IMG/VR virus record: IMGVR_UViG_3300042870_001240
From: a virus
Lineage: Duplodnaviria; Caudoviricetes
Length of the DNA stretch: 64,000 nucleotides
Reading direction: 5' to 3' (one strand)
This document shows, piece after piece, positions 3,019 through 50,609 of the stretch. Position 1 is the stretch's first letter; every line of letters starts with the position of its first letter. The notes beneath the pieces are model-generated. The model had not been told where the DNA came from. It ran no database searches and was given only the letters and a program-made list of their open reading frames with translations. Position numbers and translations under genes: made by a program.

Positions 3019-3258
3019 ATTTTTTGTTTATTATAAATATGTCTGAAAACAAAAACCCCAACCTGTATAAGAGATGGGGGGATTAAATAATAATCTTACC
3101 TTTGGCAAATCCAAATTCTCTAACTTTCAAATTTGATTTTGTTTTATACTTCTTTTTTAAGAATTTAACAAAATCCACAACCTGTAATCTCAAATCTTTA
3201 GGAAGTGAATTAATCTCAGATATTAATGTTGTATTTGTCATAACACAAATTATAAAAT

Positions 3259-3566: not shown

Positions 3567-4106
3567 TTAGATGGTAACATCATCTTTATGAGCAAGAACC
3601 TCTTCCACCCCCTCAATATCCTCTAAATAAGCACAACTAGTTGTATTTACCTTACAATTAAGAACCTCTTCAACCTTCAGTTGGCTATACGCCCATCCTA
3701 CGACAGTTGTGGTTACCTTACAGTTGAGGACCTCTTCCACCTGGCAATCTCCATTAAAATAGCCACACCGCGTTGTATTTACCTTACAGTTGAGGACCTC
3801 TTCCACCACTAGAGCGCGTGCTCGATTTATTACCAGCGTTGTATTTACCTTACAGTTGAGGACCTCTTCCACCCATTCGGACATAATCTTATCAAAATCA
3901 GGAGATTCCAAAGAAAAGAGAACAAAAAAACTCTTAAAGAAATCATATCTCCACCATAACTTACCCTCATTTTCATATTCAAAATACCAATACTTATTAT
4001 CTCTATCGATAAAGTATACACTGTCCTTATAAGAAATTATCTCGACCTTGGATAACTCCTTATAAAGTTTTTTGAATATAATATCTTTTAATCTATCTGA
4101 AACCAT
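3567..4106 (-). CDS. Array-bearing small-protein family member (MVSDRLKD type); C-terminus is a translated repeat-spacer array
   Basis: ATG at 4106 behind TATATTTG; paralog of 9453, 9993 and 20900 genes; repeats VEEVLNCKVNTT every 22 aa. Confidence 0.85.
   Translation of the reverse strand: MVSDRLKDIIFKKLYKELSKVEIISYKDSVYFIDRDNKYWYFEYENEGKLWWRYDFFKSFFVLFSLESPDFDKIMSEWVEEVLNCKVNTTLVINRARALVVEEVLNCKVNTTRCGYFNGDCQVEEVLNCKVTTTVVGWAYSQLKVEEVLNCKVNTTSCAYLEDIEGVEEVLAHKDDVTI
3574..3873 (-). CRISPR. CRISPR-like array A1: four full 36-bp repeats plus one degenerate repeat, four 30-bp spacers
   Basis: Repeats at 3640-3675, 3706-3741, 3772-3807, 3838-3873 and degenerate 3574-3609; sense consensus GGTGGAAGAGGTCCTCAACTGTAAGGTAAATACAAC; unique 30-bp spacers. 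Confidence 0.75.
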
Positions 4107-4463: not shown

Positions 4464-4549
4464 ATGTTATGTATTAGTTTATACATAAATATACACATAA
4501 ATAAAAAACCCCACCTATAACAGATGGGGGGTTATATATAAGATATTTT

Positions 4550-8593: not shown

Positions 8594-9181
8594 AATTGTT
8601 GATAACTTTTTTTATAAATCCCTCCTGACACTATGACAGAGGGGAATTGTTGATAACTTTTTATTAAATAAATATGTTAAAATATTTGGAATTGTCATTT
8701 TGTCAGTCACGCTTGACAATGGGGATAATCCCCCTCACCACCTTTTTTATATATTTTTTCCCACCTTTTCCCACCGATAATGGTCATAATAATATTGTAA
8801 TGTCACTTTTTTCCCTCTGTAGGGGTCTACAAGACCAATAAATTCACTATAGGTAAATCCCAGCTAATTATGTTCTTAAGAGTACACTAAGCGGTGAAAC
8901 ACGTAGTGTGTTAGAAACTAACACCCGATTACCATGAGATGTGTTAGAAACTAACACTTGATTTTCATGAGATGTGTTAGGATAATATCTTCAACGACCA
9001 CTTTAGTGGGACATTATACTCCCCACCATAATGACATACCATAACAAATTATAGGTAAGTTCTTTTAATAGTTAAAGAGAAACATCATTTATGATGAACA
9101 TGGTAACTACCATATAACTAACTCTATGGGAATATAAGGTTATAACCTTATAATCACCCATTATAAGGTCCTGACCTTATA
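8594..9181. promoter_or_regulatory. Non-coding control region with repeated operator/iteron-like sites (candidate origin)
   Basis: AATTGTTGATAACTTTT x2 (8594, 8645); GTGTTAG-AAA-CTAACAC x2 plus a half-site at 33-bp period (8908, 8941, 8974); TATAAGGT-N4-ACCTTATA x2 (9133, 9162). Confidence 0.55.
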
Positions 9182-9452
9182 ATTTGATTATCTCATCTAT
9201 ACAATATTTTTCCACCATAACAATTTACCAATATGTCACCATAACAATGGGGAAATTATATGTAATGACGTATACCTTACTGTTGCACCCTCATATTTAA
9301 TATGTATCTACATATAATGGGGACCTGATATAAATGGGGGAATATGATTATGAAGGAATACCGTAGTGAATGAAATGAACGGGAGGGATGAGTGAGTAAT
9401 TATATTCTCTCATTTATTGTATAACTAAAATATTATTATTATCTTTGTGATT

Positions 9453-9989
9453 ATGGTTAGTGGTAGATTAAAGGATTTGATATTTAAGAAACTGTATAAA
9501 GATTTATCTCATGTAGAAATTATTGAGTATAAGGGTGAGATATGGTTTATTGATAGAAAGGAAAAGTTTTGGTATTTTATATATACTAAGTCTAATGGTC
9601 AGATGTGGTGGAGATATTCTTTCTTTACTCCTTTCTTTCTTCTTTTCTCTTTACCCTCTGATGAATTTACTCACATTCTTTCTTCTTGGGTGGAAGAGGT
9701 CTTAAATTGTAAGGTGACCACAACACTCAAGGTGGCTAATGTTAGGGAAGTTATGGTGGAAGAGGTCTTAAATTGTAAGGTGACTGAAACAGAAACCGTT
9801 ATTAATGGCTACCCCCTATCGGTGGAAGAGGTCCTAAATTGTAGGGTGACTACAACAATGGTGTCTATTGCTTCTTTACCAAAATCGGTGGAAGATGTCC
9901 TAAATTGTAGGGTGACTACAACAATGATAGACAGAGGTATTCCACGTCATGAGGTGGAAGAGGTTTTAAATAATAATATAAATAAATAA
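9453..9989 (+). CDS. Array-bearing small-protein family member (MVSGRLKD type), translated array
   Basis: TATCTTTG upstream; VEEVLNC[KR]VTTT repeats every 22 aa. Confidence 0.85.
   Translation: MVSGRLKDLIFKKLYKDLSHVEIIEYKGEIWFIDRKEKFWYFIYTKSNGQMWWRYSFFTPFFLLFSLPSDEFTHILSSWVEEVLNCKVTTTLKVANVREVMVEEVLNCKVTETETVINGYPLSVEEVLNCRVTTTMVSIASLPKSVEDVLNCRVTTTMIDRGIPRHEVEEVLNNNINK
9689..9970 (+). CRISPR. CRISPR-like array A2: four full 36-bp repeats plus one partial, four 30-bp spacers
   Basis: Repeats at 9689, 9755, 9821, 9887 and partial at 9953; consensus GGTGGAAGAGGTCCTAAATTGTAGGGTGACTACAAC. Confidence 0.75.
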
Positions 9990-9992
9990 GAT

Positions 9993-10688
9993 ATGGTTAG
10001 TGATAGATTAAAGGATTTGATATTTAAGAAACTGTATAAAGATTTATCTCGTGTAGAGATTATTCATTATAAAACTTATATATGGTTTATCGATAGAGAG
10101 GATAAGTGTTGGTATTTCAGGTATGATAAATCTGACGGCACACTCTTATGGAGATATTATTTCTTCATGGATTTTTTTACCCTCTTTACGATGAGTTCCA
10201 TCGAATTTGTTCCCATCATATCTTCTTGGGTGGAACAGGTTATAAATAATAAGGTAACTATAACTCGCAACAAGATGACTTCATTTCCAGACGATATTGA
10301 AGATGCCTTAAATTGTAAAATGGTGGAAGAGGTAATAAATCATAAGGTTTCATTCGACTTAGGATATTCCATTTCTACCCTTTGTGAGGTGGAAGATGTC
10401 CTAAATCATAAGGTAACTAAACCAGATGGTGTCATTGCACTATATAATCCGATTGAAGAGCATCATAAGGTGGGATTAACTTTAGGACCTTCCCTTCCCC
10501 AATATGAAATGGTGGATGAGGTCCTAAATCATAAGGTAACTAAAACAGATGGAGCGATTGCATGGAGCGGTCCGATAGAAGAGGCTCTAAATAATAAGGT
10601 AAATACGACCGAAGATGAAATAGATAACAACATACGTGACCACCTCCTCAACCTTCAGCTGGCTATACGCCCATCCTACGACAGGTGA
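9993..10688 (+). CDS. Array-bearing family member with a degenerate translated array
   Basis: Tandem paralog of the 9453 gene; V[ED]xVLNHKV repeats. Confidence 0.8.
   Translation: MVSDRLKDLIFKKLYKDLSRVEIIHYKTYIWFIDREDKCWYFRYDKSDGTLLWRYYFFMDFFTLFTMSSIEFVPIISSWVEQVINNKVTITRNKMTSFPDDIEDALNCKMVEEVINHKVSFDLGYSISTLCEVEDVLNHKVTKPDGVIALYNPIEEHHKVGLTLGPSLPQYEMVDEVLNHKVTKTDGAIAWSGPIEEALNNKVNTTEDEIDNNIRDHLLNLQLAIRPSYDR
10229..10609 (+). repeat. Degenerate array A3 (eroded 36-bp repeats, internal deletions and a spacer duplication)
   Basis: First repeat 10229-10264, last 10574-10609; two similar DG.IA spacers. Confidence 0.6.
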
Positions 10689-19920: not shown

Positions 19921-19956
19921 AAATGAGGGTGTAAATGAGGGTGTAAATGAGGGTGA
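19921..19956. repeat. 12-bp tandem repeat AAATGAGGGTG[T/A] x3
   Basis: Direct reading; lies between convergent genes. Confidence 0.85.
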
Positions 19957-20899: not shown

Positions 20900-21580
20900 T
20901 TATTTTATTGATTCTATTAAAACCCCATTTTGAATGATGTCTTTTGGGAAAAAATCACGCTTTGACAATTCGGTATATTTCACCCCATTTTGAATGGTAT
21001 CTTCAACAAAGGAGTCGTTCAAAAAATTATAGATATTGGCGTGTTTCACCCCAATTTGAATGGTATTTTCAACGACAACGTTTGTAATGAACTCTACTCC
21101 TGTGGTGTTCTTCACACCATTTTGAATGGTATTTTCAACCTCTCTATCAAAATCTTCCGACCAATTATACTCATTAGGAATTTCATTTGTCCACGTATTT
21201 TTAATACCATCTTCAATAACTCTCCCAACAATAGGAATATTACCACCAATAACCCCTTCGGTTTCTTTTATACCGTTTTCAATAATACTAATAACCCCTT
21301 CTTCAAAAACAAACTTATTACCACTAATCGATAGTGGTTTATTCAAAATATTCTTAGTAAACCAATCAGTAATATATTCACTATTCTCAGTCACATTCAA
21401 TGACACAAAATTAAAAACATTATTAAATAATGAGTAATTATACCATAAGACATTCTCTTTAGTATATTCAAAAACCCATCTTTTTTCTTCGGTAAAAATA
21501 AACCACATTGACCCATTGTGATTGTAAATGTCAACACCTTTTAATTCTTTGTTTATTAATTGATTTATTGCTCGTTTCAT
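20900..21580 (-). CDS. Array-bearing small-protein family member, translated array
   Basis: N-terminal ~80 aa align with the MVSDRLKD paralogs; VENTIQNGVKxT repeats. Confidence 0.8.
   Translation of the reverse strand: MKRAINQLINKELKGVDIYNHNGSMWFIFTEEKRWVFEYTKENVLWYNYSLFNNVFNFVSLNVTENSEYITDWFTKNILNKPLSISGNKFVFEEGVISIIENGIKETEGVIGGNIPIVGRVIEDGIKNTWTNEIPNEYNWSEDFDREVENTIQNGVKNTTGVEFITNVVVENTIQIGVKHANIYNFLNDSFVEDTIQNGVKYTELSKRDFFPKDIIQNGVLIESIK
20972..21139 (-). CRISPR. CRISPR-like array A4: three clear 36-bp repeats with two 30-bp spacers, plus degenerate flanking units
   Basis: Repeats at 20972-21007, 21038-21073, 21104-21139; sense GTTGAAAATACCATTCAAAATGGTGTGAAGAACACC. Confidence 0.65.
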
Positions 21581-32151: not shown

Positions 32152-32474
32152 AATATATAATAACAGAAAATAAGTTAAACAATGTCGCGTTAAGTTGGAT
32201 GAATCAAAACTTCAGTCCATACCAGTTAGAAATTTTTGAATCTGAAAAATATCCAAATTCTGTTTTTTTTAGAAAAAATGGAAAAGTTGTGATGCAACAA
32301 GATAAAAAATCTAAGTTTTTTTGGTTTGATTATGATAAAATTTGGTCATTTTTTAAATTGTTTTTTGGTATGCAATACCCACAAATACAAGACGTTCTGA
32401 ACTACTGGTTGGAGGATACTTTCAAATTAGAGGGTTATACACCTAATCCCTACGAATTAACATATACACTTTAG
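32148..32474 (+). CDS. Array-bearing small-protein family member (MKYIITE...YWLEDTFKLEGYTP)
   Basis: Close paralog of the 50295 and 48889 genes; ends inside mini-array A5. Confidence 0.85.
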   Translation: MKYIITENKLNNVALSWMNQNFSPYQLEIFESEKYPNSVFFRKNGKVVMQQDKKSKFFWFDYDKIWSFFKLFFGMQYPQIQDVLNYWLEDTFKLEGYTPNPYELTYTL

Positions 32475-32495
32475 TTGGAGAATACCCTCAAATTA
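32408..32495 (+). CRISPR. Mini-array A5: repeat - 30-bp spacer - truncated repeat
   Basis: GTTGGAGGATACTTTCAAATTAGAGGGTTATACACC (32408-32443), spacer 32444-32473, GTTGGAGAATACCCTCAAATTA. Confidence 0.65.
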
Positions 32496-45860: not shown

Positions 45861-45882
45861 ATTATTTATTTTTATTTATTTG

Positions 45883-45955
45883 TAGTCAGGACAGGATTCG
45901 AACCTATACAATAGAGCAATCGCTCAAAGCGTTTAACCAATTTCGCCACCTGACT
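45883..45955 (-). ncRNA. tRNA-like RNA 1 (acceptor, D and T arms; non-canonical 6-nt loop in place of the anticodon loop)
   Basis: AGTCAGG/CCTGACT stem, TGGCGAAATTGGTTAAACGC D arm, ATAGGTTCGAATCCTGT T arm. Confidence 0.7.
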
Positions 45956-46032: not shown

Positions 46033-46138
46033 TGGTAGTCAGGACAGGAATCGAACCTGTAACTTCTTTGTCATACAGAGTGCCATTAGCTGTTATCTCA
46101 ACCTTGATGGTGATACGTTACCACTACGCCACCTGACT
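46033..46138 (-). ncRNA. tRNA-like RNA 2 (encoded CCA; ~54-nt insert replacing the anticodon/variable region)
   Basis: Same acceptor stem; ACAGGTTCGATTCCTGT T arm; ends CCTGACT-A-CCA; TATATTTG at 46168-46175. Confidence 0.7.
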
Positions 46139-48853: not shown

Positions 48854-48955
48854 GGTGTTAGACCCTTCAAATTATAGGTCTCTTCCAACTATAAAGAACG
48901 CAGGTTATTATTTGAAAAAGGTGTTAGACCCTTTAAATTATAGGTCTCTTCCAAC
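48854..48955 (-). CRISPR. Mini-array A6: two 36-bp repeats (1 mismatch) around one 30-bp spacer
   Basis: 48854-48889 and 48920-48955; sense GTTGGAAGAGACCTATAATTT[A/G]AAGGGTCTAACACC. Confidence 0.75.
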
Positions 48956-49197
48956 CAGTATGTTATAATACCCTTCATTTGTTCATATTCCAACCCAAAA
49001 AAGGATTTTAAAAACGACCAAATTTCATTGTAATTTATATAAACATACCCATTTTTTTTATCCTGATAATAATAAAATAATGGTAATCTATCTTCATTAA
49101 CATAAATTGTTCTATCACCCTTAACTATTGGTTTTAAATTACCAAATTTATCGTTAAGCCATGTTATCACGACCTTATCTAATTTATTTTTAATCAT
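48889..49197 (-). CDS. Array-bearing small-protein family member (YWLEETYNLKGLTP)
   Basis: Paralog of 50295 and 32148; stop codon formed at the spacer/repeat junction. Confidence 0.85.
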   Translation of the reverse strand: MIKNKLDKVVITWLNDKFGNLKPIVKGDRTIYVNEDRLPLFYYYQDKKNGYVYINYNEIWSFLKSFFGLEYEQMKGIITYWLEETYNLKGLTPFSNNNLRSL

Positions 49198-50133: not shown

Positions 50134-50349
50134 TTTGAGAGTATCCTCCAACTGGATGTAATGGAGCGAATTGCGAAGCGTGGTGTATAACCCTTTAATT
50201 TGAGAGTCTCTTCCAACTAGTCATGCTTTCCGCTGAACCGTCTTTCAGGTGTATAACCCTTTAATTTGAGAGTCTCTTCCAACTACTAACGCATTCAAGA
50301 CTGGAAATGGCTCGGTGTATAACCCTTTAATTTGAGAGTCTCTTCCAAC
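50131..50349 (-). CRISPR. CRISPR-like array A7: three identical 36-bp repeats plus a truncated fourth; spacers 30/30/29 bp
   Basis: 50182-50217, 50248-50283, 50314-50349 identical; sense GTTGGAAGAGACTCTCAAATTAAAGGGTTATACACC. Confidence 0.85.
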
Positions 50350-50609
50350 CAGTAACTCAGAAATTCCTGTATTTCTTGGTATTCCATACCAAAAAACGAT
50401 TCAAAAAATGACCAAATTTCATCATAATCAAACAAAAAATCTTTATTTTTTTTATCCTGCTCCATCACAACTTCTCCATTTTTTTTAAAAAAAATTGAAT
50501 TAGGATATTTTTCAGATTTAACAATTTCTAACTGGTCTAAACCAAAGTTTTTGTTCATCCAACTTAACACGACATTGTTTAACTTATTTTCCGTTATTAT
50601 ATATTTCAT
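50295..50609 (-). CDS. Array-bearing small-protein family member (MKYIITE...YWLEETLKLKGYTP)
   Basis: Final codons are the first repeat of A7. Confidence 0.85.
   Translation of the reverse strand: MKYIITENKLNNVVLSWMNKNFGLDQLEIVKSEKYPNSIFFKKNGEVVMEQDKKNKDFLFDYDEIWSFFESFFGMEYQEIQEFLSYWLEETLKLKGYTPSHFQS

Follow-up and report, generated by a model that had tools for sequence, protein, structure and literature searches.

A phage gene with a CRISPR-type array that is probably translated as the tail of its protein

CRISPR arrays are, to our knowledge, by definition treated as non-coding. Array finders reject repeats that lie in frame as false positives. In the literature searched, no description of a translated, gene-fused CRISPR array was found. 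This is the arrangement considered here for a locus, A1, in a 64,000-nt stretch of phage DNA, referred to as the window. The nearest published things are the compact orphan arrays of huge phages (PMC7162821) and the type VI-B arrays that are filled in trans.

A type VI-B array is defined by a 36-nt repeat and a 30-nt spacer (Smargon et al., bioRxiv 10.1101/092577). In Flavobacterium columnare, such 36-nt/30-nt arrays are filled in trans by the II-C Cas1/2, many of their spacers derive from the bacterial chromosome, and the two arrays have only the leader-distal GTTGT/ACAAC end of the repeat in common (PMC8092290). By published description, A1 is like a VI-B array in its 36-nt repeat, its 30-nt spacer, its 66-nt unit, and the leader-distal ACAAC with which the repeat ends. 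In both cases transcription proceeds from the variable end into the array and there is no adjacent adaptation gene, and the A1 family and the VI-B arrays both contain chromosomal bacterial spacers from the same bacterial phylum, the Bacteroidota. A1 is unlike a VI-B array in that it lies inside a phage protein gene, with coding sequence in the place of the leader, in frame and free from stop codons. Furthermore, its repeat has the form GGUG...CAAC and not GUUG, by which one end pair out of four is lost, it lacks both a poly-U loop and a stable hairpin, and no cas13b was seen in the 64-kb window.

The orphan arrays of Al-Shayeb et al. (2020; PMC7162821) are likewise small and borne by huge phages. 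In common with the A1 family, they reside in phages without Cas1, Cas2, and Cas4, and some of their spacers match host genes. They are, however, non-coding loci, often beside an effector gene, whereas the arrays of the A1 family would form the translated tail of a multi-copy gene family, for which an effector was not found.

Two further systems generate variable peptides. Diversity-generating retroelements (DGRs) resemble the A1 family in being phage-borne and in diversifying a C-terminus on a constant scaffold. Unlike a DGR, A1 has no template repeat: outside arrays, a second copy of a spacer is present neither in the window nor in 623 kb from related phages, with the one exception of an inverted array fragment. 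The change in the A1 family is by whole 66-nt units and not by adenine-specific substitution. In multi-core RiPP precursors, such as the cyanobactin precursor PatE, constant recognition peptides flank short hypervariable cassettes, and the precursor genes may be near-identical in DNA and differ only in their cassettes. In the A1 family, by contrast, the cassettes are copied bacterial DNA and random-like, and the constant part is a duplicated helix end. No RiPP maturation enzymes were found among the few neighboring genes scanned.

The A1 gene and its relatives in the window

The A1 open reading frame runs on the minus strand from an ATG at 4106 to a TAA at 3567–3569 and has 179 codons; its N-terminus, MVSDRLK, is that of the A1 orthologs too. 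The gene is the second in a three-gene unit, which is flanked by terminator hairpins at about 4509–4529 and about 3046–3089. The parts of the gene are the following:

3567–4106, minus strand: gene of the 179-aa protein (P0001 residues 16–194), N-domain plus putatively translated repeat-spacer tail
3874–4106, minus strand: N-terminal domain of about 78 aa, unique
3838–3873, minus strand: repeat 1, gene-proximal, encoding VEEVLNCKVNTT; end of the last helix of the N-domain
3808–3837, minus strand: spacer 1, cassette LVINRARALV; missing in the ortholog P0124, whose N-domain is identical
3772–3807, minus strand: repeat 2, identical to repeat 1 at 36/36 positions
3742–3771, minus strand: spacer 2, cassette RCGYFNGDCQ
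3706–3741, minus strand: repeat 3, differing at 2 positions from repeats 1 and 2
3676–3705, minus strand: spacer 3, cassette VVGWAYSQLK; common to P0096
3640–3675, minus strand: repeat 4 (GGTTGAAGAGGTTCTT...)
3610–3639, minus strand: spacer 4, cassette SCAYLEDIEG; common to P0096
3574–3609, minus strand: degenerate terminal repeat, encoding VEEVLAHKDDVT of the protein end VEEVLAHKDDVTI

The tail reads ...W VEEVLNCKVNTT LVINRARALV VEEVLNCKVNTT RCGYFNGDCQ VEEVLNCKVTTT VVGWAYSQLK VEEVLNCKVNTT SCAYLEDIEG VEEVLAHKDDVTI, followed by the stop codon. The array has five 36-nt repeats, encoding VEEVLNCKVxTT, and four unrelated 30-nt spacers, all of it in one frame, with a period of 66 nt, i.e., 22 codons, and without in-frame stops. 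The sequence-only reading, in which a 66-bp unit keeps frame and lacks in-frame stops, is thereby confirmed from the A1 sequence and the coordinates of its open reading frame. Near-identical direct repeats within the 23–47 nt that are generic for CRISPR arrays, separated by unique spacers of like length, are found in A1 and in 114 distinct arrays of relatives.

In the AF2 model of the paralog P0002, the N-domain has a helix, four strands, and two helices (pLDDT 75–80), and the first repeat is the end of the last of these helices. For the tail, in a model made with 28 sequences, pLDDT is about 30 and no regular secondary structure is predicted, but at this low confidence of the model a fold is possible. 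Searches of Pfam and PHROG gave nothing above threshold for three paralogs, the best Z value in a fold search with the N-domain was 5.4, which is not meaningful, and there was no match to DNA or protein in the INPHARED phage collection. The protein family consists of 1,616 clusters at E ≤ 0.001, none of which is named, and the lengths of its members step by 22 aa: 156, 178, 200, and 222.

A T-rich tract, encoding FFKSFFVLFSL, is located 40–80 nt upstream of the first repeat of A1, and a conserved FFxxFFxLFSL peptide is encoded directly upstream of the first repeat at 3874–3960 (A1) and at 9620–9688 (A2). Poly-T or poly-A tracts are reported at a similar distance in Bacteroidota CRISPR leaders (PMC8092290). 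The T-richness may come from the peptide, or the peptide from a leader-like tract.

In its many small paralogous genes, its hairpin-plus-T terminators, and its GC content of 31%, the window resembles a large bacterial phage. A complete related contig of 293,850 bp encodes a tail sheath, PolB, and ribonucleotide reductase. The A1 array recurs without change in at least 20 metagenome runs from lake water. Four further genes of the window are of concern here:

9453–9989, plus strand: paralog with the putatively translated array A2, repeats from 9689
9993–10688, plus strand: paralog P0003 with an eroded array; all gaps are multiples of 3 and the motif [VI]E[ED]VLNxKV is kept
20900–21580, minus strand: paralog P0185 with a third repeat type (VENTIQNGVKNT + 10 aa), in frame
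50182–50609, minus strand: family-2 gene and array (control); translation ends within the first spacer

The 22-residue units of P0185 (20900–21580) are built on another constant part, VENTIQNGVKNT, and upstream of them lie eroded copies. The family-2 proteins, MKYIITENKL...WLEETLKLKGYTP, constitute a more distant group, in which the last helix likewise runs into arrays; those of the window end within or right after the first spacer. All four family-2 spacers of the window (48854–48968, 50182–50349, 32408–32495) end in TA, which together with the first G of the repeat gives a TAG before each later repeat. That this is a purposeful TAG was rejected, as the TA end is true of these four spacers and not of those of relatives. 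Recoding of TAG, or a suppressor tRNA, was also rejected as the reason for the stops in family-2 arrays, as stop usage is ordinary (TAA 77, TAG 10, TGA 11) and the second tRNA-like gene merely duplicates the tRNA-Gln body and has an insertion in it. This tRNA-model match, at 46036–46138 on the minus strand beside the tRNA-Gln at 45882–45955, has the same acceptor stem, about 45 nt in the place of the anticodon arm, and no ARAGORN call.

Two other observations in the window concern short sequences with counterparts in bacteria. The 850 nt upstream of the A2 gene (8594–9446) have no open reading frame and contain a 33-nt tandem repeat at 8907–8980; a 28-nt piece at about 8666–8693 has an exact match in sampled Chitinophagales genomes, and a piece at about 8749–8780 resembles a host-family genome at 91%. 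A 12-nt tandem repeat, AAATGAGGGTGT, with 2.9 copies at 19921–19955, has 88–94% matches in several Chitinophagales genomes.

The open frame and the constraint on the peptide

Consider first the probability that an array is open by chance. The sequence-only reading had estimated that a spacer passes without an in-frame stop with probability 0.62, which is correct for uniform base composition. In real AT-rich DNA, the pass rate per spacer is 0.51–0.57, and the chance of an open frame is about 0.1 for the four A1 spacers alone and about 0.001–0.004 for ten spacers. Since the four spacers of A1 alone prove little, relatives were examined. They came from IMG/VR (10 loci by protein and 3 by repeat pattern), from metagenomes (80 loci), and from near-identical phages (two contigs), and 96 phage loci were tested for frame.

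When the stop frequency is taken from this larger set, as had been proposed as a check, in-frame stops are found in 1 of 365 unique 30-nt spacers, compared with 128–202 in each of the other five frames. The sole exception is a TAG, the last codon before the last repeat, in the locus L012. Frequent in-frame stops in orthologous arrays, the outcome that was to count against selection, are accordingly not seen. The gaps between repeats are multiples of 3 in 534 of 536 cases (30 nt in 495, 27 nt in 12, and longer where repeats are eroded), and 111 of the 114 distinct arrays, which have 2–16 repeats and reach 16 units but mostly have 4–6, are open and in frame from the first repeat to the last. In the family-2 arrays of the same phages, the spacers have 29–32 nt, 7 of 15 are not multiples of 3 in length, and the reading frame often closes within the first spacer or just past it, or is shifted. 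From these stops and frameshifts follows that the process by which arrays are built does not itself give open frames, and, further, that the open frame of family 1 is kept by selection and not built in.

The repeats carry a signature of their own. Orthologous repeats differ mainly at synonymous sites: the Leu codon, for instance, occurs as CTC, CTA, TTA, TTG, and CTT, while VEEVLNCKV is kept, and Leu5 and Asn6 of the repeat are nearly invariant. Within arrays, changes were counted in a single internal repeat when its two neighbors agree. Such singleton changes comprise 50 synonymous, 67 nonsynonymous, and 0 stop changes, when 21.8% synonymous and 5.3% stop changes are expected from random single-base substitution (p = 3e-7). 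This corresponds to an omega of about 0.4, in an estimate that ignores transition bias and possible conversion between repeats; transition bias would soften the result, not remove it. The comparison of synonymous and nonsynonymous change in repeats, also suggested beforehand, thus points to constraint on the encoded peptide.

This bears on the idea that the tail is a by-product. The 3′ end of the gene would then resemble, or mimic as a decoy, a leader-repeat junction at which a host integrase drops spacers, the extra units would be junk linker, and insertions would survive only when the native end of the protein is not cut off. In line with this idea, relatives retain the degenerate terminal repeat and the ending (VEEVLAHKDDVTI, also found in P0096 and P0104; VEEVLN(N/K)NINK), an insertion of 66 nt is frame-neutral by its length, and the cassettes are random-like in a tail predicted to be disordered. 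Junk would, however, be expected to drift neutrally, which is contradicted by the omega of the internal repeats and their lack of stop changes, and the array lengths, with up to 16 units, also go against it. In addition, loss of the distal end is not lethal for the family-2 fold, as the family-2 proteins of the window end in or right after the first spacer. Both the accidental junction and the survival of insertions through the native end alone are therefore judged to be improbable.

The cassettes are a different matter from the repeats. No positional preference is seen in them, and in composition they come close to random DNA in translation, so that there is no sign of a role for their sequence. 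Relative to the proteome of the phage, they are poor in Asp, Glu, and Lys and rich in Arg, His, Pro, and Ser. The second codon position nevertheless has more A (0.317) than T (0.271), when the reverse (A 0.278, T 0.329) is predicted for randomly oriented DNA that has passed a stop filter. This bias means either fewer hydrophobic residues or an excess of gene pieces inserted sense and in frame; both are peptide-level effects.

A quite different possibility is that the RNA comes first, and that the open frame only shields the transcript (from Rho and RNases) or secures downstream expression, with a functionless peptide. A same-strand gene follows within 120 nt in 54 of 74 arrays, and untranslated family-2 arrays exist, as does the random look of the cassettes; all of this is as it should be if the peptide had no role. 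The 20 arrays without such a close downstream gene are nevertheless also open, with the TAG of L012 as the only stop, by which operon polarity was rejected as the sole cause of open frames. A synonymous bias among changes in internal repeats is not expected from constraint at the RNA level, and the bias at codon position 2 is of peptide type. Shielding or expression as the only role of the frame is for these reasons rather unlikely. The stop and frame statistics, the family-2 control, the synonymous excess in internal repeats, and the position-2 bias instead support, as far as comparison of sequences goes, the earlier proposal that read-through of family-1 arrays is selected.

Origin, turnover, and machinery of the units

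The spacers have a GC content of 0.41, compared with 0.31 for the phage and 0.38 for host loci, and have no matches outside arrays in 623 kb of related phage DNA. Their GC value (0.408) is near that of DNA of the Chitinophagaceae MAG G001 passed through a stop filter (0.396), and their amino-acid composition is matched better by this filtered DNA than by phage DNA filtered likewise. Individual sources are found for three translated sister arrays. The A2 spacer at 9923–9952 (cassette MIDRGIPRHE) is identical at 30/30 positions to gcvT of G001, in sense orientation and in the same reading frame; since other Chitinophagales have 93–96% matches at this gcvT site, the sequence is native to bacteria. 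A spacer of the translated array L018 matches a Chitinophagaceae MAG at 29/30 positions, sense and in frame, and the cassette ISNQNILGCA, shared by L016 and P0004, corresponds to a 29/31 antisense match in a sister genome. In family 2, a gene-proximal spacer matches at 30/30 positions inside the gene of a T9SS-sorted protein in G001, a lake MAG labeled Chitinophaga, and a second spacer matches the same MAG at 29/30. No PAM is visible across the five protospacers.

These matches show, at the level of sequence identity, that the spacers of the family are foreign to the phage, and that three translated sister arrays hold near-exact copies of chromosomal genes of the Chitinophagaceae, which are the probable host of these phages. 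For the four spacers of A1 itself, no source was found in the genomes G001–G005 or in 401 sampled Chitinophagales genomes, nor in a GTDB-wide scan with spacer 1 or in IMG/VR scans with spacers 1, 2, and 4. Since the MAG is partial, at 2.6 Mb, the missing source of the A1 spacers carries little weight. The proposal that spacer capture could diversify a protein tail is hence borne out in part: sister arrays contain captured foreign DNA (30/30, 29/30, and 29/31) and near-identical phages carry different cassettes, but the origin of A1's own four was not traced. Captured DNA seems in this way to enter a protein as peptide cassettes.

How the arrays change is seen from close relatives. Near-identical (about 99%) phages differ by whole 22-codon units, and contigs whose N-domain DNA is 98–99% identical carry different units, with breaks exactly at the repeat borders. 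P0073 differs from A1 by a single additional codon, within cassette 3. In P0124, precisely the gene-proximal unit of A1 is missing, while P0096 has cassettes 3 and 4 in common with A1 and a different proximal unit, as well as two extra distal units that are common to P0104. All close relatives of A2 have the same distal cassette but differ in the proximal ones. Distal units also recur in remoter relatives. Growth by whole units at one end and a degenerate terminal repeat, both characteristic of integrase-made arrays, are thus found. The order of shared cassettes is not explained by addition at one end, from which follows that recombination between repeats also shuffles units.

A second copy of A1 spacer 3 is present at 10654–10683, inverted, at the 3′ end of P0003. 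The last 18 or so codons of P0003 (10639–10690) are the antisense of an inverted [spacer + repeat] unit, and since the match continues into what is left of the adjoining repeat, it represents a piece of array that was inverted via recombination. An independent capture in opposite orientation was rejected because of these repeat remnants. Two arrays of opposite orientation, separated by about 6 kb, would have recombined or undergone an inversion in the past.

Could this be an ordinary tandem-repeat protein, with 22-residue units and hypervariable loops shaped by slippage, point mutation, and recombination, and with a coincidental likeness to CRISPR? Such a protein would always be in frame and keep its peptide motif, as is observed, and the eroded copies in P0003 still have the motif, with 3n spacing that is irregular. 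Point changes link some of the cassettes to one another, and in L001 one unit has been duplicated together with its spacer. Slippage and mutation do not account for spacers that are exact 30-nt copies of bacterial housekeeping genes, for repeats that within an array are identical at synonymous sites when the spacers are unrelated, or for units that are present, absent, or replaced as wholes on a 98–99% identical background. Homologous family-2 arrays are, moreover, non-coding, with spacers of 29–32 nt. We consider a coincidental likeness to be highly improbable.

The enzymes that would build the arrays were sought in the phages and in their hosts. Cas1 is absent from the complete 293,850-bp related phage and from two partial ones, PADLOC gave no match for the eight largest scanned open reading frames (810–1609 aa) of the complete phage, and the longest open reading frame of the 64-kb window, at most 590 aa, leaves none of the size of cas13b there. 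No cas genes were thus found in the same genome, as searched in the window and, for Cas1, in the relatives. A host-family genome has a II-C locus with Cas9, Cas1, and Cas2, 30-nt spacers, and a 47-nt repeat of the form GTTG...CACAAC. Five incomplete host-family MAGs yielded neither an array with the phage repeat nor a cluster of similar repeats.

These results also concern the array as a precursor of guide RNA, or as a decoy that offers its repeats to a host Cas effector, for instance Cas13b. It has the type VI-B format: repeats of 36 nt that end in ACAAC at the 3′ side, and spacers of 30 nt. On the other hand, neither the window nor the complete related phage yielded an effector gene. The repeat folds with −2.2 kcal/mol, which is weaker than in 189 of 200 shuffles, so that there is no hairpin beyond shuffled controls, and at the gathering threshold Rfam gave only two tRNA-type matches in the window and no family for the repeat. 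Of the three host-derived spacers of translated arrays, two are sense to the host gene and cannot pair with its mRNA. A role as guide precursor or decoy is, on this balance, doubtful.

A proposed mechanism and its meaning

The reading that we prefer, and hold to be probable, is that A1 is a CRISPR-type array that is translated as the tail of a jumbo-phage protein, that its units were supplied by a host integrase in trans, and that its open frame is selected. The first repeat encodes the end of the last helix of the N-domain as modeled, and each further unit adds exactly 22 codons, a 12-residue copy of the motif and a 10-residue cassette of arbitrary sequence. Selection retains only those units that are open in frame, and constrains the repeated peptide. 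As there is no Cas1 in the complete related phage, we infer that the units are inserted by host Cas1-Cas2, which would act in trans at the gene-proximal repeat. The integrase would most likely be of the Bacteroidota II-C kind, which makes 30-nt spacers, and recombination from repeat to repeat would then shuffle the units.

What the tail does can be guessed at, with lower confidence. It may be disordered and display several copies of VEEVLNCKV, in which case the captured pieces would be tolerated linkers and not specific binding sites. A more far-reaching suggestion, which we put forward tentatively and think possible rather than likely, is that phages use CRISPR-type integration, via borrowed host Cas1-Cas2, as a deliberate device for protein diversification, in which selection sorts the variants. 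Each capture would then duplicate a functional motif and at the same time write a new 10-residue cassette into the tail. Such a device, if true, would be a CRISPR-based counterpart of the DGRs and a natural library of peptide cassettes from host DNA.

In A1 and its relatives, one and the same DNA carries two signatures: that of an integrase-made array, with exact 30-nt copies of bacterial genes, whole-unit change, and a degenerate terminal repeat, and that of a selected coding sequence. If the proposed reading is true, spacer integration is able to remodel proteins, phage genes are possible integration targets of the adaptation machine of the host, and at least 1,616 unannotated protein clusters of lake phages belong to a family of such layout.
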